Shown here: positions 39,558 through 58,592 of the stretch, in pieces
How positions within the stretch are numbered: position 1 is the stretch's first letter
Layout: each line of letters opens with the position of its first letter
Program-made: the position numbers and the translations under genes
The notes under the pieces: generated by a model
What the model was told of the DNA's origin: nothing
The model's database searches: none
Seen by the model: only the letters and a program-made list of their open reading frames with translations
NCBI GenBank assembly: GCA_041919795.1
Contig: JAYRTC010000015.1
Coordinates: forward strand, 23,721-87,720
Direction: 5' to 3'
From: Pseudoxanthomonas sp.
GTDB lineage: Bacteria; Pseudomonadota; Gammaproteobacteria; Xanthomonadales; Xanthomonadaceae
DNA length: 64,000 nucleotides

Positions 39558-39580
39558 CTCCAATCGATACGGAACGAGTA

Positions 39581-40726
39581 ATGGCCCCGCCCAAGATTAA
39601 AATCATGGTCGTTTTCGGTACCCGTCCGGAAGCCATCAAGATGGCACCTCTCGTACATGCGCTTCACGCGCACCCACGGCTCCAGCCCCAGGTCGTGGTA
39701 ACTGCGCAGCATCGGCAGATGCTCGATCAGGTGCTGGAGATCTTCAGGATCGTGCCGGACGCCGACCTCGACATCATGCAGCCTGGCCAGACTTTGCCCG
39801 ACGTAACGGCGAAGATCCTCCAAGGCATGACCCCACTGTTGGCAAGGCTGGAGCCTGCACTTGTACTGGTTCATGGCGACACCTCGACCACCCTGTCTAC
39901 CGCGCTGGCAGCCTTCTACGCACGGGTGCCGATTGGCCACGTTGAAGCCGGCCTGCGCACGGGAGACATGCAGGCGCCCTGGCCGGAGGAGATGAACCGC
40001 CGGCTGACCTCACCCCTCAGCACGATGCACTTTGCGCCGACAGCAGGCTCGCAAGCCAACCTGGTGCGTGAGGGAATCGCCGCAGACAGAATCCACGTCA
40101 CCGGCAATACCGTGATTGACGCGCTGCTGCAGGTCGATGCGCAGTTGAAGTCCGACCAGGCATTACGTGCTTCCATGCAGGCGCGGTTCCCATTCCTCGA
40201 CCCATCAAAGCGCCTGCTGCTGGTCACCGGTCATCGTCGTGAAAACTTCGGCCAGGGCTTCGAGCGCATTTGCAAGGCTTTGGCCAAGATCGCTGAAAGA
40301 GATGACCTCCAGGTCGTCTATCCGGTACACCTGAATCCGAACGTGCAGGAACCGGTGCGCCGGCACCTGTCAGGCCACAACAACGTGCATCTGATCGAGC
40401 CACAGGACTACCTGCCCTTCGTCTACCTCATGCAGCAGGCGCACCTTATCCTTACCGACTCCGGCGGCGTGCAGGAAGAAGCGCCTTCGCTCGGGAAACC
40501 CGTCCTCGTGATGCGCGAGACGACCGAACGGCCCGAAGCGGTCGAGGCAGGCACCGTGCGTCTGGTGGGCACGGACGATACGCGCATCGTCGCCGCTGTG
40601 GAGCAACTATTGGACGACGCCGGGGAATACGCCCGCATGTCGGAAGCGCACAACCCCTACGGCGATGGTCTCGCTTCGCGTCGCATCGCCGAACTCATCG
40701 CCAAGTCGCTCGACGCGGACGCCTGA
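39581..40726 (+). CDS. wecB: UDP-N-acetylglucosamine 2-epimerase (non-hydrolysing)
   Basis: [26 protein letters not shown] and [27 protein letters not shown] motifs. Confidence 0.92.
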
Positions 40727-40735
40727 CGGCACTTG

Positions 40736-41443
40736 TCATTCGCTGCGGGCCAGTGCCTGCAGCGAATGAATGCTGTGCTCGTAGAAGGGTTGCGCATAGT
40801 GGTACGGCGCCTTGCCCCAGCGGCGGTCGGGATCGGCAAAGACCGCGACTTCGGGATACTCAATCGTGCGCAGCGACCAGCGTGTATCTACGGCGTCGTA
40901 AAGCTGCTGGAGCATCGCATTGCTGGCACGGATCCAATGCAGGCTCGAAGCGTCGGAACCGTCCAGGAATTTCTCCGCCCAGTACACGTGATTGAATACA
41001 ACTATCGAAGCATCTACTGTCGCGAGGAGTCATTCGAACCCGGCGATCCACTGCGCCAGGAATTCCTCGCTCCTTGGCCCGATCACAGCGTGTTCGCTGG
41101 GCTCGGCGACCACGCTGCGCAGTTCGCCTGAATGAATTAAGAACGAATCGCCCATTGAAAACAGGTTGAAGCGCTCGTCGATGAAGTCGATGAGCAGCAC
41201 GTCGTGCGGCGTCGACGCGATCGCTGACAACGTGCCCTTGTCGAGGCCATTGGCTCCTATGCGCCACTGGAATGGGCTGAGAATATCGACAGCCGCGACA
41301 CACATCTGCGCGTCGTCGACTTTCCGCGTGTCGATGCTCACCATCGAGTTACGTGCAGGGTAATCTGCGATTTCGAACACTCCCGCATGCCGCAGTGCAT
41401 CCCGGGACACTCAACTCCCGAAGATGAAGACTCGTTGCGTCAT
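40736..41443 (-). pseudogene. DUF6270/SGNH-like gene interrupted by two in-frame TGA codons
   Basis: One continuous frame of 236 codons: MTQRVFIFGS-TGA(41411-41413)-VSRDALRH...AQWIAGFE-TGA(41030-41032)-LLATVDASIVVFNHVYWAEKF...ALARSE. The ATGA overlap with the upstream methyltransferase stop supports 41443 as the native start. Confidence 0.6.
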
Positions 41444-42138
41444 TCGGCTTTCTTCACCCAGAACGCGAAATGGCCGCAAAACGCAAGCTTGCGGAATGCC
41501 GCCTGCTGCACGCTGTGGTTGCCCTCCTTCGCCCACGCGTCTATCTCCTGGTTGATCGGCGACTCCTCGCCGAACCAGCGATTCATCGCAGGGTCGTTGT
41601 TGCGGTACGCACGCGTGATCAGCGTGACGCCGTCGATGCCGGGGCGGATCTCCACCAGCTGCAGGCCCGAGTCGTCCACCAGGCGCTTGAAGCCGAACGG
41701 GGTAAAGTTCCAGAAGCTGTAGGAATGGTAGGGCTCCAGGTGCGACGTCGAACCTATGAACACGCCGCCTGGCTTCAGCACGCGCTTGATGTCGACGAGC
41801 ACCTGTTCCGGGTAGCGGACATGCTCGAACACTTGGCGGCTGTAGACCATGTCGATCGAATCCGCTTCGGCGGGAATGTTCACGCCGTCGTAGGTGCGGA
41901 ATTCGGCGTCGACGCGCGCGCGCGCGTCGACTTCCGGCGAATGTTCGATGTCGACACCGAGCCACCTCGTATGCGGTGCGGCGCGTTTGAACAGATCGAT
42001 GGAGACACCTGAGCCGCATCCAAGGTCAATGACAATGGCTCCAGGGGGAAGTGACGGCGCAAGTTCCAGCGCGTACTGCACTGCACTGTACTGCGCCGCG
42101 CTATTCTTGGGCAGGTAAGGCTTCAGCTCGTTCCACAT
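41440..42138 (-). CDS. Class I SAM-dependent methyltransferase
   Basis: Motif I VIDLGCGSG and post-I/II elements (DMVYSRQVFEHV, LKPGGVF). Confidence 0.85.
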   Translation of the reverse strand: MWNELKPYLPKNSAAQYSAVQYALELAPSLPPGAIVIDLGCGSGVSIDLFKRAAPHTRWLGVDIEHSPEVDARARVDAEFRTYDGVNIPAEADSIDMVYSRQVFEHVRYPEQVLVDIKRVLKPGGVFIGSTSHLEPYHSYSFWNFTPFGFKRLVDDSGLQLVEIRPGIDGVTLITRAYRNNDPAMNRWFGEESPINQEIDAWAKEGNHSVQQAAFRKLAFCGHFAFWVKKAE

Positions 42139-42165
42139 GCACTACTCCATGGCCTGCGTACTAAG

Positions 42166-44553
42166 TCACCATCGCAGATAGACGATTCCTGACACCTTGG
42201 GTGCCTGGGGCCGTAACGCACCAAGCGGCCCGATATTGATGGACACACGAGGAAAGCCGGGCTTCTCGAAATCCAACCGATCCGCATCTCCAGATAATCG
42301 ATGAGCGACGAGCAAAAAGCCCAAGCGACCCATGTCGTTCTTGATTGAAGCGCGCACCTCTTCCTCACCCACATCCCAGTATTCGAGGACCGCCGCCGCC
42401 GGGCCGTGGAGGGAGTCAAGCCCATGCTGAGAGCGCACATGGTATGGAAAGCCCGGATGATAGCCGCCCAAAATAGCAGGCAATAGGCGCGGGGCGAATT
42501 TAGACACGCGCAAAGCCGACATTGCGGTCGCTGCCGAAGGGGTGTCAATCTCGGTTGCCATCGCAGCGCCCGGGTTCAATGCCGCAATCCACCTCCTGGC
42601 CTCGCGATCGGTCAACAGCTTCGTTCCCATTAGCCATGAGCCATCCATGCTCAGGTGTGAACTGTCGTAGTACACCGGCCGACCATCAACATAGGGACTG
42701 CACATGCCGTTGTCGCAAATGAGGTGGCGAATGTCCAGATAGGTCACTTGGTGATCTTGGCGCGCCAGTGATGCCAGATACCGGTTTATATTGCTATCGC
42801 CTTGATCGGCAACGACCAAGTGATCTCCGCAATCAAGACCCCCGATACGCAATCCTCGCAGCTCGCACTTGCGGTTGTAGCCGGCGAAATGCGGTGCTTC
42901 GCCGATAATCACTACGCGGACGCCCTTGGTGGTGAGGGCCGCAATCGTGTCTTGCAAGTCCTTGCGAAAGCCGGCGTTCGCATCGTAGACACTCCACGCA
43001 CCGCTGATGATCACCGTGCGAATCGCACCCGACAGGAGTACCTGCCGCATGTACGGCCGGAACTGGTCACAACCAGCCTTGTAACGCGATCCACCGTAAT
43101 CGCCACCGAACACGGGTGGGCAGGAGGAGTGGGTGGCATTTCGGAATCTGAAGCCATCGCGCTTCGCCAGTTGCCCGATCACGCCGATGTAATGGGCAGC
43201 CTCGGAATCGCCCCACAGCAGCATCCCCGTCGTGACTGCGAGTTCACCCTGCCCAGGCGCCGGAATTATGCATCGTGGGGAGTACAGGATGTTCGGATCG
43301 AACGCCGAGAGTTGGCAATTGTAAGAAAATTCATAGGCGGGGGCAGTGTGCTGCTCCACCAATGCGCGCCCCTCGCGATAGCCAGGAGCCAATTCAATCA
43401 TCGAACGCAGGCCGCCGCTGTACCAAATCGCGCCTGTCATCACGCAGAGCACGGCGCTCGGCGCCGCATACAGCGCGATCGCTTGCTTGAGACGGCCACC
43501 GCGCCAGTGCCGCGCAGGTAATTCGACCCAGCGATAGCTCGCATACGCCAGCGCGAACATCGCTACGATGGCGCCGGCGATCCACGGGCCTTCCACTTCG
43601 CCGAGGAAGTAGCGGAGGAAGGCGAGGATCGGCCAATGCCAGAGGTAGAGCGAATACGAGATCAGGCCAATAAACACCATCGGCCGGGGCGTGAGCACCC
43701 AAGCTACCAAGCGCGAGCTCATCCCGCCGGCCAACATCAGCAGCGCCGCGCCGACGCAGGGATAGATAGCATTGATGCCCGGGAACGTCGAGTTGTCGTC
43801 GAGTGCGTACAACGACCAGGCGATCAATCCGAAGCCCGCAGTGGCAAGGGCTTCCACGGTCACGCGCCACCCATCGCCCGCCGGATCCCGGGGCTTACGC
43901 ATCCATAGCGCAAGCAACGCGCCTACCATCAGCTCGCCCGCACGCGCTGGCAACATGTAGTACGCGAACTTCTGTGCAGAGATACTGGTCATCTCGCCGA
44001 TGGCGAATGATGCCACGCAGATCGCCGCCGCGATGGCCAGTGCCGCGACACGCCGGCTTCGCACCATCGATGCGAGAAGCAGCACGCTCGGCCAGAGGAA
44101 GTAAAACTGTTCTTCCACGCCCAGCGACCAGGTGTGCAGCAGCGGTACTTCACTGGCCGAGTCCGCGAAATAACCAGTGTCGAGGTAACGCCAGAAGTAG
44201 ACATTGGAGAGCGAGAACACTCCCCACAACGCCGATTTTCCAAGTGCGAGCAGTTCTTCCGGCAACAGCAGCAGCGCGCCTGCGACCAAGGTGACCGCAG
44301 TCATCACCAGGAACGCCGGTGCGATGCGCCGGATCCGCCGCAAATAAAACTCGGCGAAGGAGAACCGGCCGTCCTCCATCTCGCTCCAGATGTTGCGGGT
44401 GATTAGATAGCCGGAGATGACAAAAAAGATGTCAACGCCGACGTAGCCCCCCGGCATCCATGCCTTGTTGAGGTGGTAGATGACGACGCTGAGGACGGCG
44501 ACGGCGCGCAGACCATCGATGTCGGGCCGGTAGACGGTCCCGATCTTGCGCAT
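42166..44553 (-). CDS. OafA/YrhL-type acyltransferase-3 with SGNH domain and an extra ~150-aa C-terminal extension
   Basis: RPDIDGLRAVAVLSVVIYH and VDIFFVISGYLIT (AT3). About 10 TM segments. SGNH part (WGDSEAAH...DSSHLS). An alternative start exists at 44625. Confidence 0.85.
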   Translation of the reverse strand: MRKIGTVYRPDIDGLRAVAVLSVVIYHLNKAWMPGGYVGVDIFFVISGYLITRNIWSEMEDGRFSFAEFYLRRIRRIAPAFLVMTAVTLVAGALLLLPEELLALGKSALWGVFSLSNVYFWRYLDTGYFADSASEVPLLHTWSLGVEEQFYFLWPSVLLLASMVRSRRVAALAIAAAICVASFAIGEMTSISAQKFAYYMLPARAGELMVGALLALWMRKPRDPAGDGWRVTVEALATAGFGLIAWSLYALDDNSTFPGINAIYPCVGAALLMLAGGMSSRLVAWVLTPRPMVFIGLISYSLYLWHWPILAFLRYFLGEVEGPWIAGAIVAMFALAYASYRWVELPARHWRGGRLKQAIALYAAPSAVLCVMTGAIWYSGGLRSMIELAPGYREGRALVEQHTAPAYEFSYNCQLSAFDPNILYSPRCIIPAPGQGELAVTTGMLLWGDSEAAHYIGVIGQLAKRDGFRFRNATHSSCPPVFGGDYGGSRYKAGCDQFRPYMRQVLLSGAIRTVIISGAWSVYDANAGFRKDLQDTIAALTTKGVRVVIIGEAPHFAGYNRKCELRGLRIGGLDCGDHLVVADQGDSNINRYLASLARQDHQVTYLDIRHLICDNGMCSPYVDGRPVYYDSSHLSMDGSWLMGTKLLTDREARRWIAALNPGAAMATEIDTPSAATAMSALRVSKFAPRLLPAILGGYHPGFPYHVRSQHGLDSLHGPAAAVLEYWDVGEEEVRASIKNDMGRLGFLLVAHRLSGDADRLDFEKPGFPRVSINIGPLGALRPQAPKVSGIVYLRW

Positions 44554-44638
44554 TGTGGTCGCAACCGAGCCGCGCTCGACATCCGCACCCGCTGGCGCCA
44601 TCACTGCCACCCCTGACATTTCCATGGCCTTCAGGCCA

Positions 44639-45112
44639 TCATTCCTGCCAGACGAAATACACCGTGCCCAGCGAATCGGCGGCGAGCTGCAGCTTGTCAT
44701 TCACCCGAGTGGTCGTCACGGTGATGCGCTTGCCGACGTTGCCGTAGTCGCCAACGAGGTCGTCGCCACGCTCGAACGTCTTGTAGCGCTTGTAGCCCTT
44801 GGCGGCCAGAAGGTCCTCGAGCTGCTTGTCGACACTGCGCGCATCTCCGTCCTTGAACTCGATGACGAGCCTGCGCAGCTTGCCACCGGGCACGTCTTCG
44901 GCCGTACGCGAACGGATCGAGTACTTGAAGGTGGGCACGAAACCCGTCGGGAAGTCGGGGTTGTACGTAGCCGTGGTCGCGCCCTGCAGCGCCGGCGAAT
45001 CGACCGGCGCCGCGGCATTCCCGGCAGCGGTATCGACAGGAGCCTGCTGCGCAGGCTGGTTGCAGGCGACGAGAAGCAGGGCGGCGATACTCAAGCCGAT
45101 GATACGACGCAT
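44639..45112 (-). CDS. Hypothetical lipoprotein within the O-antigen locus
   Basis: MRRIIGLSIAALLLVAC lipobox. No family was recognised. Confidence 0.6.
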   Translation of the reverse strand: MRRIIGLSIAALLLVACNQPAQQAPVDTAAGNAAAPVDSPALQGATTATYNPDFPTGFVPTFKYSIRSRTAEDVPGGKLRRLVIEFKDGDARSVDKQLEDLLAAKGYKRYKTFERGDDLVGDYGNVGKRITVTTTRVNDKLQLAADSLGTVYFVWQE

Positions 45113-45194
45113 TTTGGGAGCTCCAACAAAATTCTGGGCCGGGCAGTATACAGCCCAGCGGGGTGGGGACCCCACCTCCCCCGAGACCGCGGAA

Positions 45195-47141
45195 TCAAAG
45201 AAGATCGCGGAAGATCCGGTCCAGACGGTCCAGGAACAGCTCGACCGAATACTCATGCCCGATGAATTGGCGCCCCTTGCGCGCTCCTTCCTGGAACAGC
45301 GCGTAATCCGCATTGCGCAGGATGTGGTCGCGCATGGCATCCAGCGAGGGGAAGACGAACTCCGCCGGGTAGATGTACTCGACACCCGACCAGTCCAGCA
45401 GCAGCCCCTGCCCGCCCGCCGCGAAACCATCCGACGGCGCGATGTGGAAGCTCTCCGGCAAATGCTCGTCGTCGCTGACGGACAACACGAACCCGGTGTC
45501 GGCCAGGGCCCGGGTCACGTCGACGTAGCCCTTGTAACGCACGTGCTCGCGCAGGCCATGTTGATGGATGTAGTGGTCGCACCGCTGGAAGTACGCCTTC
45601 TCCTCAGGGTCTCGCGAGAGCCACTCCGTATCTGCGGCACTCCTCCCGTAGATCGACAGATTATAGCGGGGATCGAGCTGGACGAGAGAGTGCAACAGCT
45701 GGAGCGCCTTGATCAGCCCCTTGCGCGACGGCACCGAACCGACGAGCGCGAGGTTGAACACGCGCGATGAGTCGTCGATCGAAGCGTAGCCCCCGGAACC
45801 CACGTGATTCGGCAGCAACCGTACCTTGGCCCGATCGAGATTGAAGATCTCGACCAGGCGTTCGAAATAAAGGACGGAAACCGCGATATAGGCATCCACA
45901 TTGTCGTCCTCGACGATGTGGCCAAACTGGCGTGAAAGCTCGAAGCGGTGCGTCCGGACGATGAGCCGCTGGTCCTTGCGCTTGTTGCGCGAATACCAGA
46001 CGGCGTTGCCAAGGAACCATTCGCAGAAGATCAGCTCCGCCCAATCCAGCGCGTCGCGCGAGGTTGCGGCATCGTGCGCGTTGTGGCCTGTCCATTCGTC
46101 CATGCGCACCTGGAATCTGCGCGACAGCGCAGGGACCAGTTTCTCGATGAACTTCAGGTCGTAGCCCGCGATGAGCAGTCGCGGCCTGGCTTCCTCGAAG
46201 AACCCCTCATAATCGTTTTTTCGCAACCGTTCCAACAACGGCGCCAGGCGCACATTCAGGCTATAGGTCGACACCACGCGCCAATGCTCGGACACGAAAT
46301 CCGAGAAGCGCTTGAACAATGCCTCATCGATGTCGCCCCGGTAGTAGCGGATCAATGCCTGTAATACGGTTTGCAGCCCGACCTGGAAACGGATCGCAAC
46401 GTAGGAAATACCCAGATGCGCGAGCTTGCGCTCGGCGGTGGTCCACACCTCGAGGTGGTTTCCCAGTTCGCGGGCGCCGTAGGTTCGCGTCGAAGATGCA
46501 ACGCGCGAGACCGCCTTGTTGTAGACGAATGTCGGATGGTCGATGTAACCGATCCGCTCGCACGCGGTAAGTACGTCGATGAGGAAGACTGTGTCTTCGC
46601 CCATGCGCAGAGCTTCATTCCAGGCGATGCCGTGGCGCAGCAGCAAGTCGCGCTTGATGAGCGAAGGAACGGTCGTGCTCTGCCTTCGCATGATCAACGC
46701 GATACGCTGCTTGTTGTTCCTCGCATCGTTGAATTCGGCGATGCGGTTCATCTCAACCAGCGACGCGCCATCATCGACGACGAGGAAACCGCGGACCAGG
46801 CAGCAACCATTGGCGACGGCATGCGCGTGGTGGACTGACAGCGTGTCTTCGAAGATACGATCGTCGCAATCGAGGAAGAACACGTAGTCGCCGCGCGCTG
46901 ACTGGATGCCGAGGTTGCGAGGATGCGAGGGAGATCCGCTGTTGCGCTCAGTCCGCAGCACTCGCCAATCCGGATGGCTCGCCGCTTCGGCCTCGAGGAA
47001 GGCGTGGGTGCCGTCTTCGGAACAGTCGTCGACGAAGATCACCTCGTACGGGTGCGCGAAATCCTGCGCACGCAACGACGCAATGCAACGTTCGATCTTC
47101 CCGATTGCATTGTGGCAGGGGACGATGACGGAGACTTTCAT
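45195..47141 (-). CDS. Two-domain glycosyltransferase (N-terminal GT2, C-terminal GT-B-like module A)
   Basis: GT2 elements VSVIVPCHN, IFVDDCSEDGT and FLDCDD. The C-terminal ~330 aa are paralogous to the N-terminus of the next gene. Confidence 0.85.
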   Translation of the reverse strand: MKVSVIVPCHNAIGKIERCIASLRAQDFAHPYEVIFVDDCSEDGTHAFLEAEAASHPDWRVLRTERNSGSPSHPRNLGIQSARGDYVFFLDCDDRIFEDTLSVHHAHAVANGCCLVRGFLVVDDGASLVEMNRIAEFNDARNNKQRIALIMRRQSTTVPSLIKRDLLLRHGIAWNEALRMGEDTVFLIDVLTACERIGYIDHPTFVYNKAVSRVASSTRTYGARELGNHLEVWTTAERKLAHLGISYVAIRFQVGLQTVLQALIRYYRGDIDEALFKRFSDFVSEHWRVVSTYSLNVRLAPLLERLRKNDYEGFFEEARPRLLIAGYDLKFIEKLVPALSRRFQVRMDEWTGHNAHDAATSRDALDWAELIFCEWFLGNAVWYSRNKRKDQRLIVRTHRFELSRQFGHIVEDDNVDAYIAVSVLYFERLVEIFNLDRAKVRLLPNHVGSGGYASIDDSSRVFNLALVGSVPSRKGLIKALQLLHSLVQLDPRYNLSIYGRSAADTEWLSRDPEEKAYFQRCDHYIHQHGLREHVRYKGYVDVTRALADTGFVLSVSDDEHLPESFHIAPSDGFAAGGQGLLLDWSGVEYIYPAEFVFPSLDAMRDHILRNADYALFQEGARKGRQFIGHEYSVELFLDRLDRIFRDLL

Positions 47142-47145
47142 CGGT

Positions 47146-49707: not shown

Positions 49708-49715
49708 CGTTCCCC

Positions 49716-52700
49716 CTAGACTTCGATCTTCTGCAGCAGCGCATCGCGATCATCCTGCGCATCCACTGCGGCGAAATTCGCCGAGTCGGATGCGTAGGCC
49801 TTCGATGCGAAGGCCGGCGCAAGGCCGCCCTGCGCATCCAGCAATCCGCCAGCTTTCGTGCCTGCGGTACGCATTGCGGCCGTGTTGATGACCAACGTAC
49901 GCGAATCCAGCGTCCGCCCCCATTCGTACTCTGCGCCATCGACGGCCTTGCCGACGACCAGTGCACCGCTGTAGCGGACGGCGTGCACCGCATCCTGCAG
50001 ATAATGGCGACCGTATACCGCACGCGGCGACAGTAGGGCGACCACCGCGTCGGGGACGGATTCGCGCTCCCAGTCGATAAGTTGCGTAAGCGGCACCTGC
50101 GTGTCAGGTATCGTGCGCACATCGGGCCATTGGCCGTCAAAGCGGAAGCCGTTGCGGCACACGAGTAGCAGCTGCCTGCGGATATCGTCGGTGGTCTGCT
50201 GTCGCCCGAACGTGGCGAACGCCGCCTCCGCCTCCGCCTGGTCGGCGATCTCTGCGATCGCGATCAGCCGCAGGCCGCTTCCCTCTCGCTCGCCCATCAA
50301 CGACAGGATCCTTCCGAAACGATGGCGGTACGTATGCCGGGCGAGTACCGCACGGATGCCAGCGAGGCTGCGCCGCCGCCATTCCAGTGGATCGGTGGTG
50401 AGCACGCGTAGGGCGGCCTCGGCCTCGTCCTGACTCCTCACCTGCCAGACGATGTCGTCGCCGAATGTCTCGGCTATACCGTGTGACCATGTGCTCACGA
50501 CAGGCGTGCCGCAAGCCAGCAACTCGAACACGCGGCGCGAGAACATCGTGGACGAATCGTCTACCGAATTGACGTTGAGGAACACTTGGTACTCGCGGTA
50601 CTTTCTCGAGAGCGCGTCGTAGTCGAGCCGGCCGCGGATGTATGGCGCGTAGTCTTGAGGGAACGCGAACTCGCTGCGCGCGCCGACGTCGCGATGGTTG
50701 CGATCGTAGATATCAAGGTCGTATGCCTTCGCCGCTTCGAGCAGCATCGACTGTCCGCTCTTGCGGGCTTCGAAACCTTCCGTGTAATAGCTTCCGGCGA
50801 AGCATACCTTGCCGTTCCGGCGAGAGGATCCCTGCGGATTTTGCAGACTGTCCTCGGCGGCGAACTGCATCACCTCCACGCGCGCAGAGGTCTTCAGCCG
50901 ATACCTATCGATCGATTCCGCGGATGTCGTCAGGACCACGTCGCACCGGCTGGCGGACTCGATGAACGCATCGAAGTGAACGGGATCTTCCTTGTTCCAG
51001 AAGATCGTCGGCACGCCGCGGCTGCGGAACCCTTCGACCATATTCGCGAATTCATCGCCCGGCGGGTGCTCGGCACTGGCTACGCGGTAGCGCCACGTCC
51101 CGCGATTACCGCGCCAGGCCGACTCGGCCAGAAGGAAGCGCGGCGAGAACCTTTCGAGCAGACCTTCCCAGTTGTCGGGGCGGGTTTCGATCAGGTTCGC
51201 ATGTGGCGCGAAGCAGGCGCGTGAGAACTCATCCAGCACGCTCATGACTGGGATCGAACCATGAGGGCTCTCTTGTTCCCATCCGATCACCGCCAACTTT
51301 TTTTTTTGCTCCTCGTTGCGGGACAACGGATCTTCGTGTTTGTCCGACTTGCCTGGTGCGGCGGCACCACCCGACTTCGCGGTGGGCTTGGGTTTGGGTA
51401 GCGGAGGCAGCACGAGTTGCGCCATCGGCAGCGTTCCGTCCCGTCGCCGCTGGTACATGCGTACAACCCGCGCCACCGCGCGCGGGAATCCAATGATTCC
51501 GCGTACGCTGCCTAGCCCCAGCATCGCACGCCCGATCGCCAGCGCGATCGAATGCTCGTAGCGCTGGCTCTCCTCGTGCAGGCTCTGCGCGAGCGCGATC
51601 AACGCCTTCGAGCGCGCCTGTTCGGCCTCGAGCTTTGCCCAGTGCCCGGAACGCTTTTCCTGCGCCTCGGCGAGCTCTGCCGTCATCTTGCGAATGCGGA
51701 CATTCATTTCGTCCGCCGCAGTCTGCAATTCCTGCGCGCGCGCGCGCGCGGCGCCGAGCGATTCGTTGAAAGCGCGCGAACGAGTGCCGTCGGCGTCGTG
51801 CAAGGCCTTGACTTCGTCTTGCAGCGCCTGCGCGCGGTCGGTGGCGATGCGCTCTGCGGCTTGCGCGCTGGCCGTGTCGACCTGCAACGTGGCCAGCTGC
51901 TGCATCAGCGCGTCGACACGTCGCGAATGCGTGTCGACGAGCGACTCCTGCATGCGTATCCGCTCCGAGTGGTCGTCGCGCAGCGCGTTGACACGCTCCA
52001 TGTGGTCCTCTCGCAGCGTGCGCAAAGCCTGGGCGTGCTCCTCTCGTTGCGCATGCAGGGCCTGGGCGTGCTCCTCTTTTTTCGTGCGCAGGGCTTCGGC
52101 GTGTTCGGTACCGCTGTCGGCCGCAGCAAGGCGTGCGTTATCGAATGCGGCCTGCAGGCTGCTGGCGCGTTCCGCACCAAGCGCCAGAGAGAGCTCGAGC
52201 TCGCCTTGGCGCGCGACCAGCGCAGCCTTTTCGCCGCGCATTCCTTTCAGGGTGTGCTCAAGCGCGCCCCGCGCCTTCGCATTCTCCTGCGCGGCGGAAT
52301 TCGCCGCGTAGTAGCTTGTTTGCGCATCGATGGCGCCGGTTTCGGTGACGCGCAGCAACATGTCCATGTCGTCGCCCACAGGTTCGTCGGCGGCGCGGCG
52401 GTCAGCGACCACGCGGATGTAGCCGTCGGTAACTGCGATGGTCTGCAGCATGAACCCATCGACGATCGCTTCATGCAGGTGGCGGGGGAAGATCGACGAT
52501 TTGTGATCCGGCCATGGATGCAGGCCGTAGGGCACGGTGATGATGATGCGTCCACCAGGCGCGACGTGCGCGGCACCCTGGCGGATGAAGCGCACGGGGT
52601 TGGTCTGGTGTTCAACAACCTCGCCCATGACTACGGTGTCGTACTGGCCCTCTCCTAGCGCGGCGAGTTCGCCACAACGGAATTCCAGACGCTGCTGGAC

Positions 52701-52979
52701 CGACGCGATCTCCTTCGCGCGCTCCGCCATGGCGTACTCGATCGCGGGCGGATAGATGTCCAGTCCCGTCACGACCAAGCCCTCGCGAGCCATCAGGATC
52801 GCGGCAATGCCCTGGCTGCAGCCAATGTCGAGCACGGTCGAGCCACGCGCGTTAGCGCACATCCAGTTGATCCGATCGCGCGTCTTCTGCCCAAAGGCAG
52901 CACCCATTGCATCGTAATAGGCCTCGTTGATGCGATCTGCCAACGGATTGGTGGCGTCATGGTCGTCATGCATGGTCAT
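49716..52979 (-). CDS. Methyltransferase / long coiled-coil / CgeB-like glycosyltransferase fusion protein (1087 aa)
   Basis: SAM motif I VLDIGCSQG (aa ~49-56). aa ~225-480 are Ala/Glu/Arg/Gln/Leu-rich helical sequence with 11-residue repeats. Lys/Pro linker. aa ~575-895 are paralogous to module B of the 47146..49707 product (AESAWRG...PTIFWNKEDP...FAGSYY...MFSRRVFELLACGT). Confidence 0.8.
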   Translation of the reverse strand: MTMHDDHDATNPLADRINEAYYDAMGAAFGQKTRDRINWMCANARGSTVLDIGCSQGIAAILMAREGLVVTGLDIYPPAIEYAMAERAKEIASVQQRLEFRCGELAALGEGQYDTVVMGEVVEHQTNPVRFIRQGAAHVAPGGRIIITVPYGLHPWPDHKSSIFPRHLHEAIVDGFMLQTIAVTDGYIRVVADRRAADEPVGDDMDMLLRVTETGAIDAQTSYYAANSAAQENAKARGALEHTLKGMRGEKAALVARQGELELSLALGAERASSLQAAFDNARLAAADSGTEHAEALRTKKEEHAQALHAQREEHAQALRTLREDHMERVNALRDDHSERIRMQESLVDTHSRRVDALMQQLATLQVDTASAQAAERIATDRAQALQDEVKALHDADGTRSRAFNESLGAARARAQELQTAADEMNVRIRKMTAELAEAQEKRSGHWAKLEAEQARSKALIALAQSLHEESQRYEHSIALAIGRAMLGLGSVRGIIGFPRAVARVVRMYQRRRDGTLPMAQLVLPPLPKPKPTAKSGGAAAPGKSDKHEDPLSRNEEQKKKLAVIGWEQESPHGSIPVMSVLDEFSRACFAPHANLIETRPDNWEGLLERFSPRFLLAESAWRGNRGTWRYRVASAEHPPGDEFANMVEGFRSRGVPTIFWNKEDPVHFDAFIESASRCDVVLTTSAESIDRYRLKTSARVEVMQFAAEDSLQNPQGSSRRNGKVCFAGSYYTEGFEARKSGQSMLLEAAKAYDLDIYDRNHRDVGARSEFAFPQDYAPYIRGRLDYDALSRKYREYQVFLNVNSVDDSSTMFSRRVFELLACGTPVVSTWSHGIAETFGDDIVWQVRSQDEAEAALRVLTTDPLEWRRRSLAGIRAVLARHTYRHRFGRILSLMGEREGSGLRLIAIAEIADQAEAEAAFATFGRQQTTDDIRRQLLLVCRNGFRFDGQWPDVRTIPDTQVPLTQLIDWERESVPDAVVALLSPRAVYGRHYLQDAVHAVRYSGALVVGKAVDGAEYEWGRTLDSRTLVINTAAMRTAGTKAGGLLDAQGGLAPAFASKAYASDSANFAAVDAQDDRDALLQKIEV

Positions 52980-52990
52980 TGGGGCCTTGC

Positions 52991-54265
52991 TCAGGGCGAC
53001 TTGGAGTTCCAGAATCCGGTAGCGTCGATTACCGTCTTGCCCACGGGGCGCGCGACACTGCGGAACGCAGAGTGGCTGACGAGCATGACGACCACGTCGG
53101 CGGCGTCCACCGTCGATTCCAGGGGGCCGAACACGATGTCATCGTACGACTCATGCGCCTCGCCCGAATGCCCGATCGTGTTGGCGAACGGGTCGATGCA
53201 GGTCACGCGGCCCGGGTAGCGCGCGGTGATAGCGCGTGCGATCTGCAACGACGGGCTTTCGCGGAAGTCGTCCACATCCGGCTTGTAGGTCAGGCCCAAG
53301 CACGCGATGCGCGGCTGCGACACGGCGGCCGCAGCCACGGCGTGTGCGACTTGCTCGAGCACGTAGGCAGGCTTGGTGTCGTTGACCTCGCGCGCGGTGC
53401 GGATCAAGCGCGCCCGTTCGGGCGCGCCGGAAACAATGAACCATGGATCCACCGCGATGCAGTGGCCGCCAACACCAGGACCCGGCGCCAGAATGTTGAC
53501 CCGGGGATGGTGATTAGCCAATTCGATGACGCGCCATGCGTCCATTCCCGCATCACCGCAGATCATCGACAGTTCATTTGCGAAGGCGATGTTCACGTCG
53601 CGGAACGCGTTTTCGGCGAGCTTGCACAGCTCTGCGGTGCGATCATCCGCCTTCAGGCACGCGCCCTTTACGAATGCCCCGTATAGCCCGGCAGCAGCAT
53701 CCGAGCATTTCTGCGACATGCCACCGATGATCCGATCATTCTCGACCAATTCGGTCAGCATGCGCCCGGGAATGATCCGTTCGGGGCAATATGCGAGATG
53801 GATATCCGCATCCGCCACGCCATCTAGCGGGAAGCGCAGATCGGGCCTTAGCTTGGCAAGAGTCCGCGCCAACTCCTTGGTCGTCCCGACCGGCGAAGTT
53901 GATTCGAGGACTATCAGGTTACCCGGACGAAGAACCGGGGCCAAAGCTCGCCCGACCGCCTCGACATAACTCGTATCGGGAGCCTTGCTGTCGTGATCCA
54001 CCGGCGTCGGAACCGCAATTATGAACGCATCAGCCGGCTCAGGACTCATGGTTGCGCGCAAGCTGCCATTGGCGACCGCTGCTTCGACGAGCTCCCCGAG
54101 CATGGGCTCAACGATGTGAGTACGTCCACTGTTGATGGTGTCGACCGCGTGCTGATTGACATCTACGCCAATGACACGCTTTCCACACGTCGCGAACATG
54201 GTCGCGGTAGGAAGTCCGATATAGCCCAAGCCGATGACCGATACGGTATCGAATGACTGCTCCAT
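52991..54265 (-). CDS. wecC: UDP-N-acetyl-D-mannosamine dehydrogenase (nucleotide-sugar dehydrogenase)
   Basis: VSVIGLGYIGLPTA Rossmann motif, catalytic GGHCI. Collinear with WecC/Cap5O-type enzymes. Confidence 0.88.
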   Translation of the reverse strand: MEQSFDTVSVIGLGYIGLPTATMFATCGKRVIGVDVNQHAVDTINSGRTHIVEPMLGELVEAAVANGSLRATMSPEPADAFIIAVPTPVDHDSKAPDTSYVEAVGRALAPVLRPGNLIVLESTSPVGTTKELARTLAKLRPDLRFPLDGVADADIHLAYCPERIIPGRMLTELVENDRIIGGMSQKCSDAAAGLYGAFVKGACLKADDRTAELCKLAENAFRDVNIAFANELSMICGDAGMDAWRVIELANHHPRVNILAPGPGVGGHCIAVDPWFIVSGAPERARLIRTAREVNDTKPAYVLEQVAHAVAAAAVSQPRIACLGLTYKPDVDDFRESPSLQIARAITARYPGRVTCIDPFANTIGHSGEAHESYDDIVFGPLESTVDAADVVVMLVSHSAFRSVARPVGKTVIDATGFWNSKSP

Positions 54266-54417
54266 TAGAAAAATCCTGTTTTTGATGAGTTACTTTTCTG
54301 TGCCGACGCATCGCGACCACGCCGCGATGGTAACGCAGACCCCGTCAAGGGAACGGGGCCGCCACAAATCCTCGACACGCAACCATGCGGGGAGTGGCAG
54401 AGGAATGGAATCCCGCA

Positions 54418-55194
54418 TCACGCCGCCGGCGCTACACTCGGCGGAGCGGGGGCACGGAGCAGGTCGGCGTATTCCTGCAACACGTCATCTACGGTCCCCA
54501 GCGCGCGCAACCGCCCCGCCTCGATAAGCATGGCGCGGTTACACACGCTACGCAACAAGTGCGCGCTATGGCTTGCAAGAACCACAATCTTCGCGTTCTC
54601 CACCCGCGACTTGAGCCGCTCAGTCGCCTTCTCGACGAAAGCGCTGTCCCCAGTGCCGATCCATTCGTCCATGATGAGGATCTCGTGCTGTACTGCCGTG
54701 GCAAGCGCAAACCCGAGACGCATTTTTTGTCCCGCCGACAGCGTGCGCAACCGATGGCCCGATTTCTCCTGGAGCTCGGCGAAATCGAGTACTTCGTCAA
54801 TTACCGCGGCTGCCTGGGCCGGGCGCAGGCCCATCGCGATTCCCCGCAGGAGGATATTCTCGACTAACGTCGCCTCATGATTGAAGCCAAGCGAGATATT
54901 AAGCAATGCTTGACGCGTACCTTTCACCTCAAGGATTCCGCGGCTGGGTGGATATGCTCCAATCAATACTTTCAGCAGTGTCGACTTGCCGGCACCATTG
55001 CGCCCTACAACCGCTACCCGCTCACCTGCCAGAATCTCGAAACTGATGTCATCAAGTGTGGTCCGCAGCTCCCTGCGCGGCGGATTGAATGCTGCGCGCA
55101 GCAGTACACCTAGACCCGCGCGAATGCTCCTTTGGCCCTGGGTATAGATGGGCAGGTCCAGGCCAATTCCATCCGCTCGCAAAAAGCTGCTCAT
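54418..55194 (-). CDS. wzt: O-antigen/polysaccharide ABC exporter ATP-binding protein Wzt (short form, no C-terminal carbohydrate-binding domain)
   Basis: Walker A GRNGAGKST, signature LSAGQKMR, Walker B ILIMDEW. Only 258 aa. Confidence 0.88.
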   Translation of the reverse strand: MSSFLRADGIGLDLPIYTQGQRSIRAGLGVLLRAAFNPPRRELRTTLDDISFEILAGERVAVVGRNGAGKSTLLKVLIGAYPPSRGILEVKGTRQALLNISLGFNHEATLVENILLRGIAMGLRPAQAAAVIDEVLDFAELQEKSGHRLRTLSAGQKMRLGFALATAVQHEILIMDEWIGTGDSAFVEKATERLKSRVENAKIVVLASHSAHLLRSVCNRAMLIEAGRLRALGTVDDVLQEYADLLRAPAPPSVAPAA

Positions 55195-55197
55195 ATT

Positions 55198-55989
55198 TCA
55201 GATCCAGATAGGAACGAAGCGCGCGTAACGCCGATAGACCCAACTGGCCAGCAACCAGCCCCCCGCGGTCATTACACCAAGATAAGTCGGGGTCAGGCGT
55301 CCAACGGGTTCGCTCAGCAGCGGCGCACGCACCACCTCCACCAAGTGGAACAGGGGGTTGAGGCGGGCAATGAAACCTTGCAGGGTGTTGATCGGCACCT
55401 GATCTGCGCGCCACAGGATCGGTGTGAACAGGAAGCTCACCATCATGATGCTGCCGATAAGCTCATTCACGTCCGGCAACCTCGCGCCAAGAACAGCGAC
55501 GACCGTACCCATCCACGCTACGTTGACAAGCACTACGAGCAGCGCAGGCCATATGGTTACGAGGCCGAACAGATCAAAATCGGGGCTGATATACAGCGCA
55601 ACGGCGATAACAGGCACCGCGATGAAGAAGTAAAACAAAGCTTTTGCAATGACCCGTAGTACGTAATCGGTAAACCGCACTCGACCATCCTGGATAAACC
55701 CGGCATGGCTGTTGAACGTGCTGGTGCACTCGCTCAACGACACGGTTACGAGCCGGTAAACCACGTAGCCGATTCCCAAGTGCGCGATAATTCTAGCTGG
55801 CGGTTGTTGGCCTATCTGTGCATAGAACGCACCGATACCGAACGCGTAGAGGATTGGTGGAACGATGGCCCATATCAACCCAAGCCGTGACCGGCGATAC
55901 TTGCTCAGCAGGTCCAGCCACATCGCATACATCCAGAAACTTGGGTTTTTCAGGCTGTCCCGGTAATCCTTCCACAAAGAATGTTGCAT
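55198..55989 (-). CDS. wzm: O-antigen/polysaccharide ABC-2 type exporter permease Wzm
   Basis: 263 aa with 6 TM segments. Start region KNPSFWMYAMWLDLLSKYRRSRLGLIWAIV is typical of ABC-2 permeases. 3 nt upstream of wzt. Confidence 0.88.
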   Translation of the reverse strand: MQHSLWKDYRDSLKNPSFWMYAMWLDLLSKYRRSRLGLIWAIVPPILYAFGIGAFYAQIGQQPPARIIAHLGIGYVVYRLVTVSLSECTSTFNSHAGFIQDGRVRFTDYVLRVIAKALFYFFIAVPVIAVALYISPDFDLFGLVTIWPALLVVLVNVAWMGTVVAVLGARLPDVNELIGSIMMVSFLFTPILWRADQVPINTLQGFIARLNPLFHLVEVVRAPLLSEPVGRLTPTYLGVMTAGGWLLASWVYRRYARFVPIWI

Positions 55990-57161
55990 CAGCGAAGGGC
56001 CCTCTCGAGATCCACTCGAAGGTCATCAAACGATTCCACCCCCACGCTCAAGCGCACGAGATGATCCACTACGCCCAGTTCCAACCGTCGCTCCGCCGGC
56101 ACCGACGCATGCGTCATGATTGCCGGATGATTTACCAGGCTCTCTACCCCACCGAGTGATTCGGCCAGGGCGAACAATTCGGTTCGTTCGCAGAACCGCT
56201 TCGCTACGCTGGCACCGCCTTTGAGCAGGATCGACACCATGCCGCCGTAGCCATCCATCTGGCGCTTGGCCAACTCATGTTGCGGGTGCGACTTCAAGCC
56301 GGGGTACACCGCTTTCTCGATTGCCGGATGCCTTTCCAGCCATTCCGCCAGCGCCTGCGCGTTGTCGCAATGCGCCTTCATCCGCAGGTGCAGGGTCTTC
56401 AGTCCCCGCAAGGCCAGGAAGCTGTCGAACGGCCCCTGCACGCCGCCGATCGAGTTCTGCAGAAACGCGATCTGCTCGGCTAGTGCGGCATCGTCGCCAA
56501 CCACCACCATGCCACCGACCATGTCGGAGTGGCCATTGAGGTACTTGGTCGCCGAGTGCATGACGATGTGCGCGCCATGCTCGATCGGGCGCTGCAGGAT
56601 CGGCGAGCAGAAGGTGTTGTCGACCACCACGACGAGGTCGCGCTTGCGGGCGATCGCGGCTATCTGTGCGATGTCGACCAGCTTCAACAGCGGATTGGTC
56701 GGAGTCTCGATCCAGACCAACTTGGTCTCGGGGCGGATCGCGGCCTGGAACGCGGCTGGGTCGGTCAGGTCGACCCAGCTGAAGTCCAGCCCGGCGCTGC
56801 GGCGGCGGACGCGTTCGAACAGGCGGTAGGTCCCACCGTAGACATCGTCCATGGCGATGACGTGACTGCCGGTATCGAGCAGCTCGAGGATGGTCGAGGT
56901 CGCGGCCATGCCTGATGCGAAAGCGAAGCCGCGGCTGCCACCTTCTAGCGCGGCGACGCAACGCTCGTAGGCGAAGCGGGTCGGGTTGTGGCTGCGGGTG
57001 TACTCAAAGCCCTGGTGCACGCCGGGACTGGACTGGACGTAGGTCGAGGTCTGGTAGATCGGTGTCATCACCGCGCCGGTGCTGGAGTCGGGGGACTGGC
57101 CAGCATGGATGGCGAGTGTCCCGAGCCCGGGCCTGTGTGTTTCTGTCTCACCGGCGTTCAT
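55989..57161 (-). CDS. metB: Cys/Met-metabolism PLP enzyme (cystathionine gamma-lyase/synthase family)
   Basis: SATKYLNGHSDMVGG PLP-lysine motif. Its stop overlaps the wzm start (TGATG). Confidence 0.9.
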   Translation of the reverse strand: MNAGETETHRPGLGTLAIHAGQSPDSSTGAVMTPIYQTSTYVQSSPGVHQGFEYTRSHNPTRFAYERCVAALEGGSRGFAFASGMAATSTILELLDTGSHVIAMDDVYGGTYRLFERVRRRSAGLDFSWVDLTDPAAFQAAIRPETKLVWIETPTNPLLKLVDIAQIAAIARKRDLVVVVDNTFCSPILQRPIEHGAHIVMHSATKYLNGHSDMVGGMVVVGDDAALAEQIAFLQNSIGGVQGPFDSFLALRGLKTLHLRMKAHCDNAQALAEWLERHPAIEKAVYPGLKSHPQHELAKRQMDGYGGMVSILLKGGASVAKRFCERTELFALAESLGGVESLVNHPAIMTHASVPAERRLELGVVDHLVRLSVGVESFDDLRVDLERALR

Positions 57162-57251
57162 GCATGCACCTCAGCCACGGCCATCGTTTAAAGCGAGCCG
57201 GGCATGGTAACACCGGCGCCCATTCCGTACGCCTGGATCCATTTACATGGA

Positions 57252-58592
57252 TTAACAAATACCTCGTGATACGGCTTCATTCAGCATCATTTCGAGCCTG
57301 GCTGCGGCGGCGCTCCAGCTCCAGGGCGCGACGCTGTCCGCAGATACGTCCAAACCTGCATGGAGTCCGCCAGACTCATGCTGGAGCCGAAGGCTAGTCA
57401 ACGCGTTGACGATGCCTTCCCGGGTTCCCGGAATCGACCAGCCGCGTTGCAGCTTTCCTAAAAGCGCACTGGCGGCGTCCTGGTCGACGGCTCGCACGTG
57501 CAGGATCGGGCGGCCGGCCCCGAAATATTCATAGAATTTCCCGGGAACCTGGGCCGGGTCCTGGTTGGCGAGATTGACCAGCACGTCGGCTTTGCGCTGC
57601 AGATCCAGCAGTTGGCGATGCGGCACGCACCCCAGTAGCCGCAGCTGGTCCGGATATGCGATAGCTTCGGCCAACAGCCAGTCGGGGAGATTGGCCGATG
57701 CTATGCTCAGCCGGATCCCGGGAATGGCAAGCACCGCCTTCACCAGCATTGACGGGTCCCGGAAGCTGTAGAAGCTGCCGGAGTACAGCAGTTCCAACGG
57801 CGCTTTCGCATCACCAGCTTGGTGAGGCTGTGCGGGAACCCGTTCGTCGAAACCCTGCTCAAGCACCGTCATGGGCGCTCCCGTCCGGTAACGACCTCTC
57901 AATCTCTCTGCTGTCTTCAGCGTCGTCACCAGCACTTGGTCGGCCCGACGTAGAGTTGCTTCCTCCAGCTTCCCTGCTCGCCGCTGCCAGCGCGGAGGCG
58001 TATAGACCGCCAATACCGGGTCACCCAGATCGGCTACCCACGGATATCCTGATGCCTTGGCGACCAAACCGACCTGTAGGGTAGTCGCCGGTTCGTGCGA
58101 AGAGACGACCACGTCAGGACCGATCTGATCCAGCAATCCCGGCAACGCCCGTAATGCGGGCCCCAGCCATTCGCCGCGCAGGTCCGGGAAAATCACCCAG
58201 GACACTGCTTTCCGGAATCGCTCCACCAAGCGACCTTTCCAATTCAGACGAAGCGGCGCGGGCGCTATCGCGGTAGCCGGTACGATCGACCGCGCAGCTT
58301 GCTCAGCCGCAGGCAGCACAGGCCGCCGCGATACCAGCCAGTCCAGAAACGCACGGATCGGACCGGGATTCACGCGGTGAATCCGCATTCCCGGCCATGG
58401 ATCCGGCAATCCTGCGAACGTGCCGGAAATATCCGGAGCCATGACATGGACTTCATGGCCAAGCTCAGCCAGTCTCCCGCTCAGATAGGCCCAGCGAAGT
58501 GATTGCGGCGATGGGCTCGGCGGATATTCATAGGCGATCACCAGGATCCGCAGCTTGCGAATGCTGTTTTCTAACCTCTCCGTCGTGATCAC
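57252..58592 (-). CDS. GT-B fold glycosyltransferase (GT4-like)
   Basis: N-terminus RILVIAYEYPPSPSPQSLR. C-terminal nucleotide-sugar-binding half with EYFGAGRPIL. The GTG start overlaps the cbs stop (GTGA). Confidence 0.78.
   Translation of the reverse strand: MITTERLENSIRKLRILVIAYEYPPSPSPQSLRWAYLSGRLAELGHEVHVMAPDISGTFAGLPDPWPGMRIHRVNPGPIRAFLDWLVSRRPVLPAAEQAARSIVPATAIAPAPLRLNWKGRLVERFRKAVSWVIFPDLRGEWLGPALRALPGLLDQIGPDVVVSSHEPATTLQVGLVAKASGYPWVADLGDPVLAVYTPPRWQRRAGKLEEATLRRADQVLVTTLKTAERLRGRYRTGAPMTVLEQGFDERVPAQPHQAGDAKAPLELLYSGSFYSFRDPSMLVKAVLAIPGIRLSIASANLPDWLLAEAIAYPDQLRLLGCVPHRQLLDLQRKADVLVNLANQDPAQVPGKFYEYFGAGRPILHVRAVDQDAASALLGKLQRGWSIPGTREGIVNALTSLRLQHESGGLHAGLDVSADSVAPWSWSAAAARLEMMLNEAVSRGIC

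Follow-up and report, generated by a model that had tools for sequence, protein, structure and literature searches.

What does the block of about 19 kb of sugar-related genes beside etfA in an uncultured Pseudoxanthomonas make, and how did it come to lie there? The window analysed here is a stretch of 64,000 nt (positions 23,721 to 87,720 of contig JAYRTC010000015.1, assembly GCA_041919795.1), and all coordinates refer to it unless another sequence is named. An earlier note, made from this DNA alone, had described 39581-58592 as an O-antigen locus of reduced GC at the etfA/metB hotspot known from Xanthomonas. [quoted passage not shown] The locus is genuine, correctly bounded and horizontally exchanged; its cassette type is uncharacterised but recurrent, the hotspot has already been described, and there is no categorical novelty.

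The conserved left flank is etfA (38619-39557, plus strand), preceded by etfB (37800-38546, plus strand), and the conserved right flank is the cystathionine beta-synthase (CBS) gene (58589-59959, minus strand; Pfam PALP and CBS). EtfA has 92-94% identity to its best named matches, all from Pseudoxanthomonas. A blastn comparison with the relatives L083, L084 and L086 (P. sacheonensis) revealed 86-91% similarity over etfA, ending at 39553-39557, and on the right side the similarity to P. sacheonensis restarts at 58591. The CBS gene is 96% identical to that of P. sacheonensis over its full length and stays Pseudoxanthomonas-like to the final 150 nt; the identities of EtfA and CBS are the basis for assigning the host to Pseudoxanthomonas. 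Contigs from strains that co-occur in three wastewater or sludge metagenomes match the CBS gene (depth up to 400x) and split into several sequences at 58589-58591, and this divergence at the CBS stop codon indicates that the hotspot varies within a single community. The exchanged block is 39558-58588, from the etfA stop codon to the CBS stop codon. The end coordinate given earlier, 58592, does mark where the block truly ends, but the reasoning that took metB as an anchor was wrong: etfA is a conserved flank, whereas metB (55989-57161, minus strand) lies inside the block and the right flank is CBS.

Three relatives were compared at etfA, namely an ENA contig with 96% EtfA identity, strain CF125 (94%) and P. 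sacheonensis (93%). In each of them the gene order leading up to the site is ETF-QO, Reprolysin/FG-GAP protein, CoA-transferase A and B, DcsG_N-like gene, etfB and etfA, and directly 3' of etfA each one carries a different set of sugar-modification genes, unrelated to those of the other two. The same gene set with normal GC was not seen in all relatives, and the view of the locus as variable rather than core holds. A scan anchored on metB covered at least 80 Lysobacteraceae loci (one genome per species, 10-kb flanks). The order CBS-metB is near-universal in these loci, and metB is usually followed by wzt. Among the loci listed, a wzm homologue is detectable in about half, wzm and wzt are 22-68% identical, and the downstream content is diverse, so that most loci have in common with the window only a diverged wzt, with or without wzm. 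Wzt is 380-520 amino acids (aa) long in most other cassettes at the hotspot.

In Xanthomonas and Stenotrophomonas, the LPS loci lie between metB and etfA, with wzm-wzt first after metB and a convergent unit at the etfA end; the described loci are those of Xoo BXO1 and BXO8, Xac 306, Xoc BLS256, the Xcc wxc cluster and S. maltophilia R551-3 (PMC2238763, PMC524487). The window locus shares with them the chromosomal site, the wzm-wzt pair after metB, the convergent unit at the etfA end, a size in the range of ~12-24 kb, a GC content under the genome mean, a chimeric make-up, replacement among relatives and CoA-transferase (lpsI/J-type) genes nearby. Gene content, site and layout therefore agree with the earlier proposal of a Wzm/Wzt O-antigen locus of about 19 kb at the Xanthomonadaceae LPS hotspot. 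However, the locus differs from the described ones in its Pseudoxanthomonas host, in its content (wecB and wecC, CgeB-like glycosyltransferases and an AT3-SGNH protein), in having metB within the exchanged segment and a GT4 glycosyltransferase gene beyond metB beside CBS, and in being free of insertion sequence (IS) elements. The Xanthomonas LPS hotspot thus behaves alike in wastewater-dwelling environmental members of Pseudoxanthomonas and Lysobacter. Sensitivity to phages, resistance to grazing and serotype are all decided by O-antigen cassettes.

Some contigs met in these comparisons carry doubtful labels. Contigs labelled Nocardiopsis yanglingensis (L048) and Bryobacteraceae metagenome-assembled genome (MAG; L046) contain a Lysobacteraceae-type CBS-metB-wzt arrangement at 76-88% identity and are probably contamination or misbinning. 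An EtfA sequence (P0160) labelled Devosia sp. and 93% identical looks like a similar case. Separately, P. sacheonensis has a 691-aa WbsX/RgpF-type glycosyltransferase gene (2076-4151 of L086) that separates ETF-QO from the protease gene and that neither the window nor the other relatives possess; this insertion may mark a second small variable site.

The same type of cassette was found in two other genomes. In L. cavernae (JBHRXK010000004.1, 199576-222743), the region from wecC to wecB has the same genes, order and orientation as the window. The full order there is CBS, metB, wzm, wzt, GT4, wecC, a methyltransferase-spacer-glycosyltransferase gene, genes for 852-aa and 648-aa glycosyltransferases, lipoprotein, AT3-SGNH, methyltransferase, an intact DUF6270 gene and convergent wecB. 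In P. japonensis (PDWW01000005.1, 84390-104878), the same set, in matching order and orientation but without AT3-SGNH and with DUF6270 intact, is joined to etfA. The gene content that the earlier note had called distinct does differ from that of Xanthomonas, but it is not unique to the window. The genes from wecB to that of the 1087-aa methyltransferase-spacer-glycosyltransferase protein are 67-88% identical to L. cavernae and 61-84% to P. japonensis, the 232-aa methyltransferase reaching 88% with its L. cavernae orthologue. Most genes are closer to the cassette of the other genus than to the congeneric one. The exception is wecC, which is closer to P. japonensis (68%) and to Stenotrophomonas sp. 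Iso1 (64%) than to L. cavernae (56%); judged by sequence, the wecC allele differs in origin from the neighbouring glycosyltransferase genes. For GT4, the identity to L. cavernae is 44%, and the P. japonensis homologue is partial (55% over 17% of the query). The glycosyltransferase core has 81.8% nucleotide identity to L. cavernae over 8.6 kb, compared with ~75% in the flank at 60-63 kb. This contrast, together with the identity pattern of the two cassettes, points to lateral spread and a mosaic make-up.

Pairwise identity matrices revealed that metB was a passenger in the exchange. The CBS gene of the window is 90-96% identical to Pseudoxanthomonas and 84-86% to the Lysobacter group, whereas metB is 79-81% identical to Pseudoxanthomonas and 86-88% to the Lysobacter group; the Pseudoxanthomonas metB genes are 85-90% alike among themselves. 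Being of Lysobacter type, metB arrived with the cassette, and the incongruence of metB and CBS places the right-hand crossover between them, at the GT4 site. The horizontal transfer suggested earlier is thus borne out by the core-to-flank contrast, by the lower similarity of the P. japonensis cassette than of the L. cavernae one and by the metB/CBS incongruence. In E. coli, gnd hitch-hikes with the O-antigen loci, and the case of metB is alike. Outside Xanthomonas, metB is unsafe as a neutral marker or PCR anchor for this locus. A MAG labelled Pseudoxanthomonas sp. (L007) also has a Lysobacter-type metB, 88% identical to that of the window and 92% to Novilysobacter, which could mean that metB was replaced there in a similar way or that the bin carries a wrong label.

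The GT4 gene (57252-58592, minus strand; 446 aa, Pfam Glyco_transf_4) occupies an unusual position. Its homologues stand directly after wzt in eight of the loci, that of L. cavernae among them. In both L. cavernae and P. japonensis the GT4 gene precedes wecC, the latter having the partial homologue mentioned above. Among the loci listed, the order CBS-GT4-metB occurs only in two (L027 and L061), which also hold the closest GT4 relatives listed, at 56-57% identity. Comparison of gene orders suggests that GT4 has moved relative to its usual position after wzt. No GT4 remnant was found in the 152-nt gap between wzt and wecC, and a PDB sequence search with GT4 gave no match.

The gene map of the locus was built from the listing of open reading frames (ORFs) and from Pfam and NCBIfam scans. 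A co-directional, closely spaced array runs on the minus strand from 58592 to 40736, with wecB alone on the plus strand, in agreement with the description in the earlier note. Spacing within the array ranges from a 4-nt overlap to 27 nt, except for gaps of 82 nt between the lipoprotein and GT2 genes, 152 nt between wzt and wecC, and 90 nt between metB and GT4. An overlap of 4 nt joins the GT4 start to the CBS stop, wzm begins on the last nucleotide of the metB stop with wzt 3 nt further on, and the start of the DUF6270 gene overlaps the stop of the 232-aa methyltransferase gene. At the other end wecB converges on the array, its stop codon lying 9 nt from that of the DUF6270 gene; a consensus scan found no terminator-like hairpin between the two, and this terminator-free convergence had been read correctly before. 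An alternative TTG start of wecB, at 39554, overlaps the etfA stop.

WecB (39581-40726, plus strand) is a non-hydrolysing UDP-GlcNAc 2-epimerase by its matches to Epimerase_2 (419 bits) and TIGR00236 (527.5 bits, cutoff 210), and WecC (52991-54265, minus strand) matches the UDP-ManNAc dehydrogenase model NF008286 (586.5 bits, equivalog cutoff 459). Scores above the equivalog cutoffs indicate that UDP-ManNAc and UDP-ManNAcA should be available. The two genes had been placed at opposite ends of the locus; this is right for wecB, at the etfA end, but wecC is interior and adjoins wzt, and the gene at the far end is GT4. The export genes were present as expected: wzm, an ABC-2 permease gene (55198-55989, minus strand; Pfam ABC2_membrane), and wzt, the ATPase gene (54418-55194, minus strand; 258 aa, Pfam ABC_tran). 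No Pfam domain of a Wzx flippase, Wzy polymerase or Wzz was found in any ORF of the locus. Pfam and NCBIfam scans of the locus ORFs also revealed no WecA/WbaP-type, transposase or integrase domain, as the earlier note had it for an initiating phosphoglycosyltransferase and mobile-element genes.

These genes suggest the following pathway. WecB and WecC would produce UDP-ManNAc and UDP-ManNAcA, and the chain would be started on undecaprenyl phosphate by an initiating transferase encoded elsewhere. GT4 may add a primer or adaptor sugar, a role suggested by its recurrence beside wzt in cassettes with differing polymerases. Polymerisation in the cytoplasm would then fall to three large proteins that carry five glycosyltransferase modules between them. 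In the 1087-aa protein, the N-terminal methyltransferase, held by ~270 helical residues at a distance from the glycosyltransferase module, would cap chains that are long enough, like WbdD or the Klebsiella O7 ORF6. Export would be by Wzm and Wzt, the latter without a carbohydrate-binding module. The AT3-SGNH protein may O-acetylate the chain in the periplasm, perhaps with the help of the paralogous lipoprotein, and the second, 232-aa methyltransferase (41440-42138, minus strand; class I S-adenosylmethionine (SAM)-dependent and stand-alone, Pfam Methyltransf_11/23/25) may add further methyls. The DUF6270 gene would be dead in this strain.

In total, the locus encodes six glycosyltransferase modules of four kinds, and two pairs of modules are paralogous between proteins, as expected from the mosaic glycosyltransferases noted earlier. 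The 648-aa protein (45195-47141, minus strand) combines a GT2 module (Glycos_transf_2, 94 bits) with a GT-B-like module that gives a weak Glycos_transf_1 match in Pfam, and its GT2 relatives in the PDB include TarS/TarP-like enzymes. Its stretch 321-645 shares 32% identity with residues 5-328 in the 853-aa protein (47146-49707, minus strand), which consists of a GT-B-like module, a CgeB-like module (DUF3880 and Glyco_trans_1_2, Pfam) and a small C-terminal domain. Residues 368-686 of the 853-aa protein are in turn 34% identical to residues 578-892 of the 1087-aa protein. A PDB sequence search with the 853-aa protein gave no match.

The 1087-aa protein (49716-52979, minus strand; domains from Pfam and structure prediction) is the candidate chain terminator, ruler and polymerase subunit. 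Together with the 232-aa gene, its N-terminal domain accounts for the two methyltransferase functions of the earlier note. In the AlphaFold2 (AF2) model (mean predicted local distance difference test score, pLDDT, 77), a Rossmann methyltransferase (residues 27-194) is followed by two very long helices at 205-318 and 326-475 and by conserved helices at 478-513; beyond a Pro-rich, disordered linker come a GT-B module (576-894) and an alpha/beta domain that is modelled with confidence (903-1087). The spacer of residues 205-475, encoded by 51555-52367 on the minus strand, is rich in Ala, Glu, Leu and Arg. A Foldseek search with the full model mostly retrieved methyltransferases, plus the GT-B enzyme SdgB, and was uninformative for the C-terminal alpha/beta domain; the methyltransferase domain has a weak sequence match to WbdD (E 0.9-1.6e-3 over ~85 residues). 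The combination of a methyltransferase with Glyco_trans_1_2 was found in 45 homologue clusters, the named ones from Lysobacter, Pseudoxanthomonas and Stenotrophomonas. Across 34 homologues the spacer varies from 148 to 311 aa, and all other segments are constant in length. A 33-nt tandem repeat of 3.1 copies (52002-52103, Tandem Repeats Finder) encodes 11-aa repeats within the spacer, and through it the spacer might lengthen or shorten.

Capping of the chain end is suggested by analogy. Coiled-coil proteins mark terminators, and in WbdD and WbbB the coiled coil is a molecular ruler (PMC11231755). The closest likeness, by architecture, is to the Klebsiella pneumoniae O7 ORF6, which consists of a methyltransferase-kinase, a coiled coil and two GT2 modules (PMC11231755). 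In both, a single polypeptide joins a SAM methyltransferase at the N-terminus to a C-terminal glycosyltransferase through a long helical spacer in the middle; both are encoded in a wzm/wzt locus, with further polymerase modules on other proteins. However, the window protein has no kinase-like or Ig-like domain before the spacer, as the AF2 strand 187-194 runs straight to the helix beginning at 205, and its glycosyltransferase is a CgeB-like GT-B rather than GT2. With WbdD, which acts with WbdA in E. coli O9a and K. pneumoniae O3, it shares a methyltransferase at the far end of a coiled coil (predicted here), conserved membrane-proximal helices behind it, and a chain length proposed to be set by the spacer length. 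Unlike the window protein, WbdD lacks a glycosyltransferase module and recruits WbdA, and the O9a WbdD has a kinase domain.

The exporter does not fit easily with such a terminator. Wzt has the Pfam ABC_tran domain only, and its PDB match covers residues 12-243, the best being the 260-aa mycobacterial RfbE. Its best NCBIfam model, Wzt/RfbE, is matched below the equivalog cutoff, as is the Wzm/RfbD model NF050109 by Wzm (141 bits, cutoff 380). A length of ~260 aa with a nucleotide-binding domain only is common to K. pneumoniae O2a and the mycobacterial RfbD/RfbE system; in O2a it is the coupling of extension to export, and not a terminator, that determines chain length (PMC11231755), while the mycobacterial exporter is compared at the Wzt level only. 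In contrast to the window, export in WbdD systems needs the carbohydrate-binding module of Wzt, and all characterised terminated O-polysaccharides, O7 included, have a Wzt with this module (PMC11231755). A Pfam search of the C-terminal domains of both CgeB-like proteins for a carbohydrate-binding module gave no match, and that of the 1087-aa protein is predicted by AF2 to be alpha/beta, not a beta-sandwich.

Several points weigh against the cassette as we read it. Because Wzt lacks the carbohydrate-binding module, the methyltransferase may not be a terminator, and the long helices are predicted at a pLDDT of only 50-68 in a monomer model. Neither an initiating transferase nor a WaaL ligase was found among the ORFs scanned in the window, which include part of those outside the locus. 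The GC shift is moderate, and the metB-anchored scan sampled one genome per species. Two options follow: a methyltransferase in the 1087-aa protein that has no terminator role, or export of capped chains by this family with no recognition of the cap.

The first of these options leads to a different account of the protein, which we regard as possible although less probable than capping: the methyltransferase would methylate sugars inside the repeats, the helices would oligomerise or act as a scaffold, and the chain length would follow from coupling of synthesis and export as in Klebsiella O2a. The 258-aa Wzt without an extra domain fits this account, the more so as Wzt ORFs are also short in the sister loci with a methyltransferase-spacer-glycosyltransferase homologue, and as chain extension is obligatorily linked to export in the module-less transporters of O1/O2 (PMC11231755). 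However, the spacer is the only segment to vary in length, which suits a ruler better than a fixed scaffold, and for internal methylation the locus offers another, stand-alone methyltransferase. We keep chain-end capping as the preferred, though putative, role. On the second option, it is conceivable, though we hold it rather doubtful, that the methyltransferase-spacer-CgeB-like family represents a third mode of ABC-dependent synthesis, in which a methyl-capping ruler is paired with a Wzt without module. Recognition of the cap would then be unneeded or provided in trans, for example by the unassigned alpha/beta domain after each CgeB-like module, and O-acetylation would use a new accessory domain that occurs both fused to AT3-SGNH and free as a lipoprotein. 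The cassette is a compact test case for the rule that pairs coiled-coil terminators with a module-bearing Wzt. Its interest to specialists lies in the ruler-like protein with a module-less Wzt, in the AT3-SGNH/lipoprotein pair and in the clean evidence for hitch-hiking of metB.

The AT3-SGNH O-acetyltransferase (42166-44619, minus strand; 817 aa, as is the gene call in L081) had been recognised earlier, and Pfam agrees, with Acyl_transf_3 (PF01757, 107 bits) and SGNH (PF19040, 139 bits). Like Salmonella OafA and OafB, it is a membrane AT3 domain fused to a periplasmic SGNH domain and encoded within an O-antigen locus. Unlike them, it has an extra C-terminal domain of ~110 aa (coding region 42166-42500) and a neighbouring stand-alone lipoprotein paralogue of that domain. 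A PDB sequence search with the protein gave no match. The lipoprotein (44639-45112, minus strand; 157 aa) has a signal peptide and the lipobox LVAC. The earlier note had called it an orphan lipoprotein; it does have these lipoprotein features, but it is not an orphan. A profile comparison with the neighbouring AT3-SGNH protein shows homology to its last ~108 residues (hhalign probability 91%, E 1e-6, 106 columns) and identifies the lipoprotein as a paralogue of that C-terminus. No Pfam or NCBIfam family matches it. AF2 predicts residues 50-157 at a pLDDT above 90, and a Foldseek search gave nothing significant (best E 0.04). Its fold has a weak DcrB/PsbP-like resemblance, the closest superposition being DcrB (TM ~0.4). 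About 30 homologue clusters were found, seven of them apparently on the same contigs as homologues of the 1087-aa protein. The simplest reading is that the lipoprotein is a periplasmic accessory of O-acetylation. P. japonensis (L087, 10489-11356) keeps the lipoprotein but, of AT3-SGNH, only a 35-aa 3' remnant, which lies immediately upstream of the methyltransferase gene.

Could the product be another glycan, that is, a capsule, a polymer like enterobacterial common antigen (ECA) or teichuronic acid, or a glycan destined for the glycosylation of proteins? ECA and teichuronic acid likewise depend on WecB and WecC as precursor enzymes, the locus has no ligase gene, and the closest NCBIfam and PDB matches of Wzm and Wzt are to the mycobacterial galactan exporter. 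However, the site and the metB-wzm-wzt layout are those of the Xanthomonas LPS loci (PMC524487, PMC2238763), and Pfam detects no KpsC/S/D/E-type, Wza/Wzc-type or oligosaccharyltransferase domain in the locus. We consider a product other than O-antigen unlikely.

The base composition raises a further question, namely whether the block might be a vertically inherited core region with a low GC due to weakly expressed or membrane-protein genes. Overall GC amounts to 61.4% across 39581-58592, against 65.3% for the remainder of the window, and 1-kb windows inside the locus have 56-65%. The GC at third codon positions (GC3) is 0.67-0.82 in the 12 locus genes and 0.83-0.91 in 15 Pfam-supported housekeeping genes; the ranges are disjoint, with means of 0.74 and 0.86 (Mann-Whitney p = 1e-5). 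Individual values are 0.74-0.75 for wecB, 0.67 for GT4 and an intermediate 0.81 for metB. The reduced GC described earlier is thus seen as a lower GC3 in all 12 genes, but the overall contrast is smaller than hand counts had suggested. A core origin could draw on the L. cavernae cassette, which likewise lies below its flanks in GC3, so that low GC appears to be a property of the cassette wherever it is located, and on the Reprolysin-like gene upstream, which is low in GC without being an island. However, relatives with 93-96% EtfA identity carry unrelated genes at the site, metB and CBS are incongruent, and the similarity of the cassette does not track taxonomy, all of which make vertical inheritance very improbable. 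The Reprolysin-like metalloprotease with FG-GAP repeats (775 aa; 32707-35034, minus strand) has 56-60% GC and a GC3 of 0.66. It was considered as a second island and rejected, as it is syntenic in five relatives (L083-L087).

Since the DNA comes from an activated-sludge metagenome in which many co-occurring strains contribute to a CBS depth of up to 400x, the junctions might have been an assembly chimera of a Lysobacter-type cassette with Pseudoxanthomonas flanks. However, independently built Logan contigs at a uniform 52-53x cross both junctions without differences, one from etfA to wecB (2472 nt) and one over metB-GT4-CBS (1789 nt, 52x), which leaves a chimera with hardly any probability. 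Furthermore, a locus of this type adjoins etfA in P. japonensis as well, which is an isolate genome. The full sequence was found in one activated-sludge metagenome run, and parts of it recur in wastewater runs of other studies.

The DUF6270 gene (40736-41443, minus strand) is a pseudogene. The reading frame is kept over 235 codons but contains TGA at codon 11 (41411-41413) and codon 138 (41030-41032), and the read-through product matches the Pfam profile over positions 1-222 of 222 (139 bits). The gene had been described as disrupted, which is correct; the disruption consists of the two in-frame TGA codons and no frameshift. Both TGAs recur in low-depth contigs of other wastewater runs, which rules out assembly errors as their cause. 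Recoding of the TGAs as selenocysteine or by read-through, with the gene functional, might be suspected because the first TGA aligns exactly with the conserved Cys of GSCVSRD, both TGAs and the frame are retained in strains from other plants and no frameshift is present, but it is very unlikely, as the second TGA stands opposite Arg or Glu of the homologues rather than Cys, three of the five inter-strain single-nucleotide polymorphisms fall at second codon positions, suggesting relaxed constraint, and no selenocysteine insertion sequence (SECIS)-like or other Rfam match was found in 36000-62000.

Traces of a mobile element or a dedicated control signal were not detected around the locus. No flanking direct or inverted repeats were found, and no tRNA adjoins it, the sole tRNA found being tRNA-Trp at 27480. 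The ops/JUMPstart motif GGCGGTAG occurs twice, both times within genes and at chance level. Upstream of etfB, two CoA-transferase subunit genes (35136-36600), of the lpsI/lpsJ type in the Xanthomonas literature, are kept in all relatives examined. A palindrome at 38543-38605, with 22-nt arms that are 95% complementary, fills the 73-nt spacer between etfB and etfA; as the two genes abut in Pseudoxanthomonas relatives, it looks like a small insertion resembling a repetitive extragenic palindromic (REP) element or a miniature inverted-repeat transposable element (MITE).

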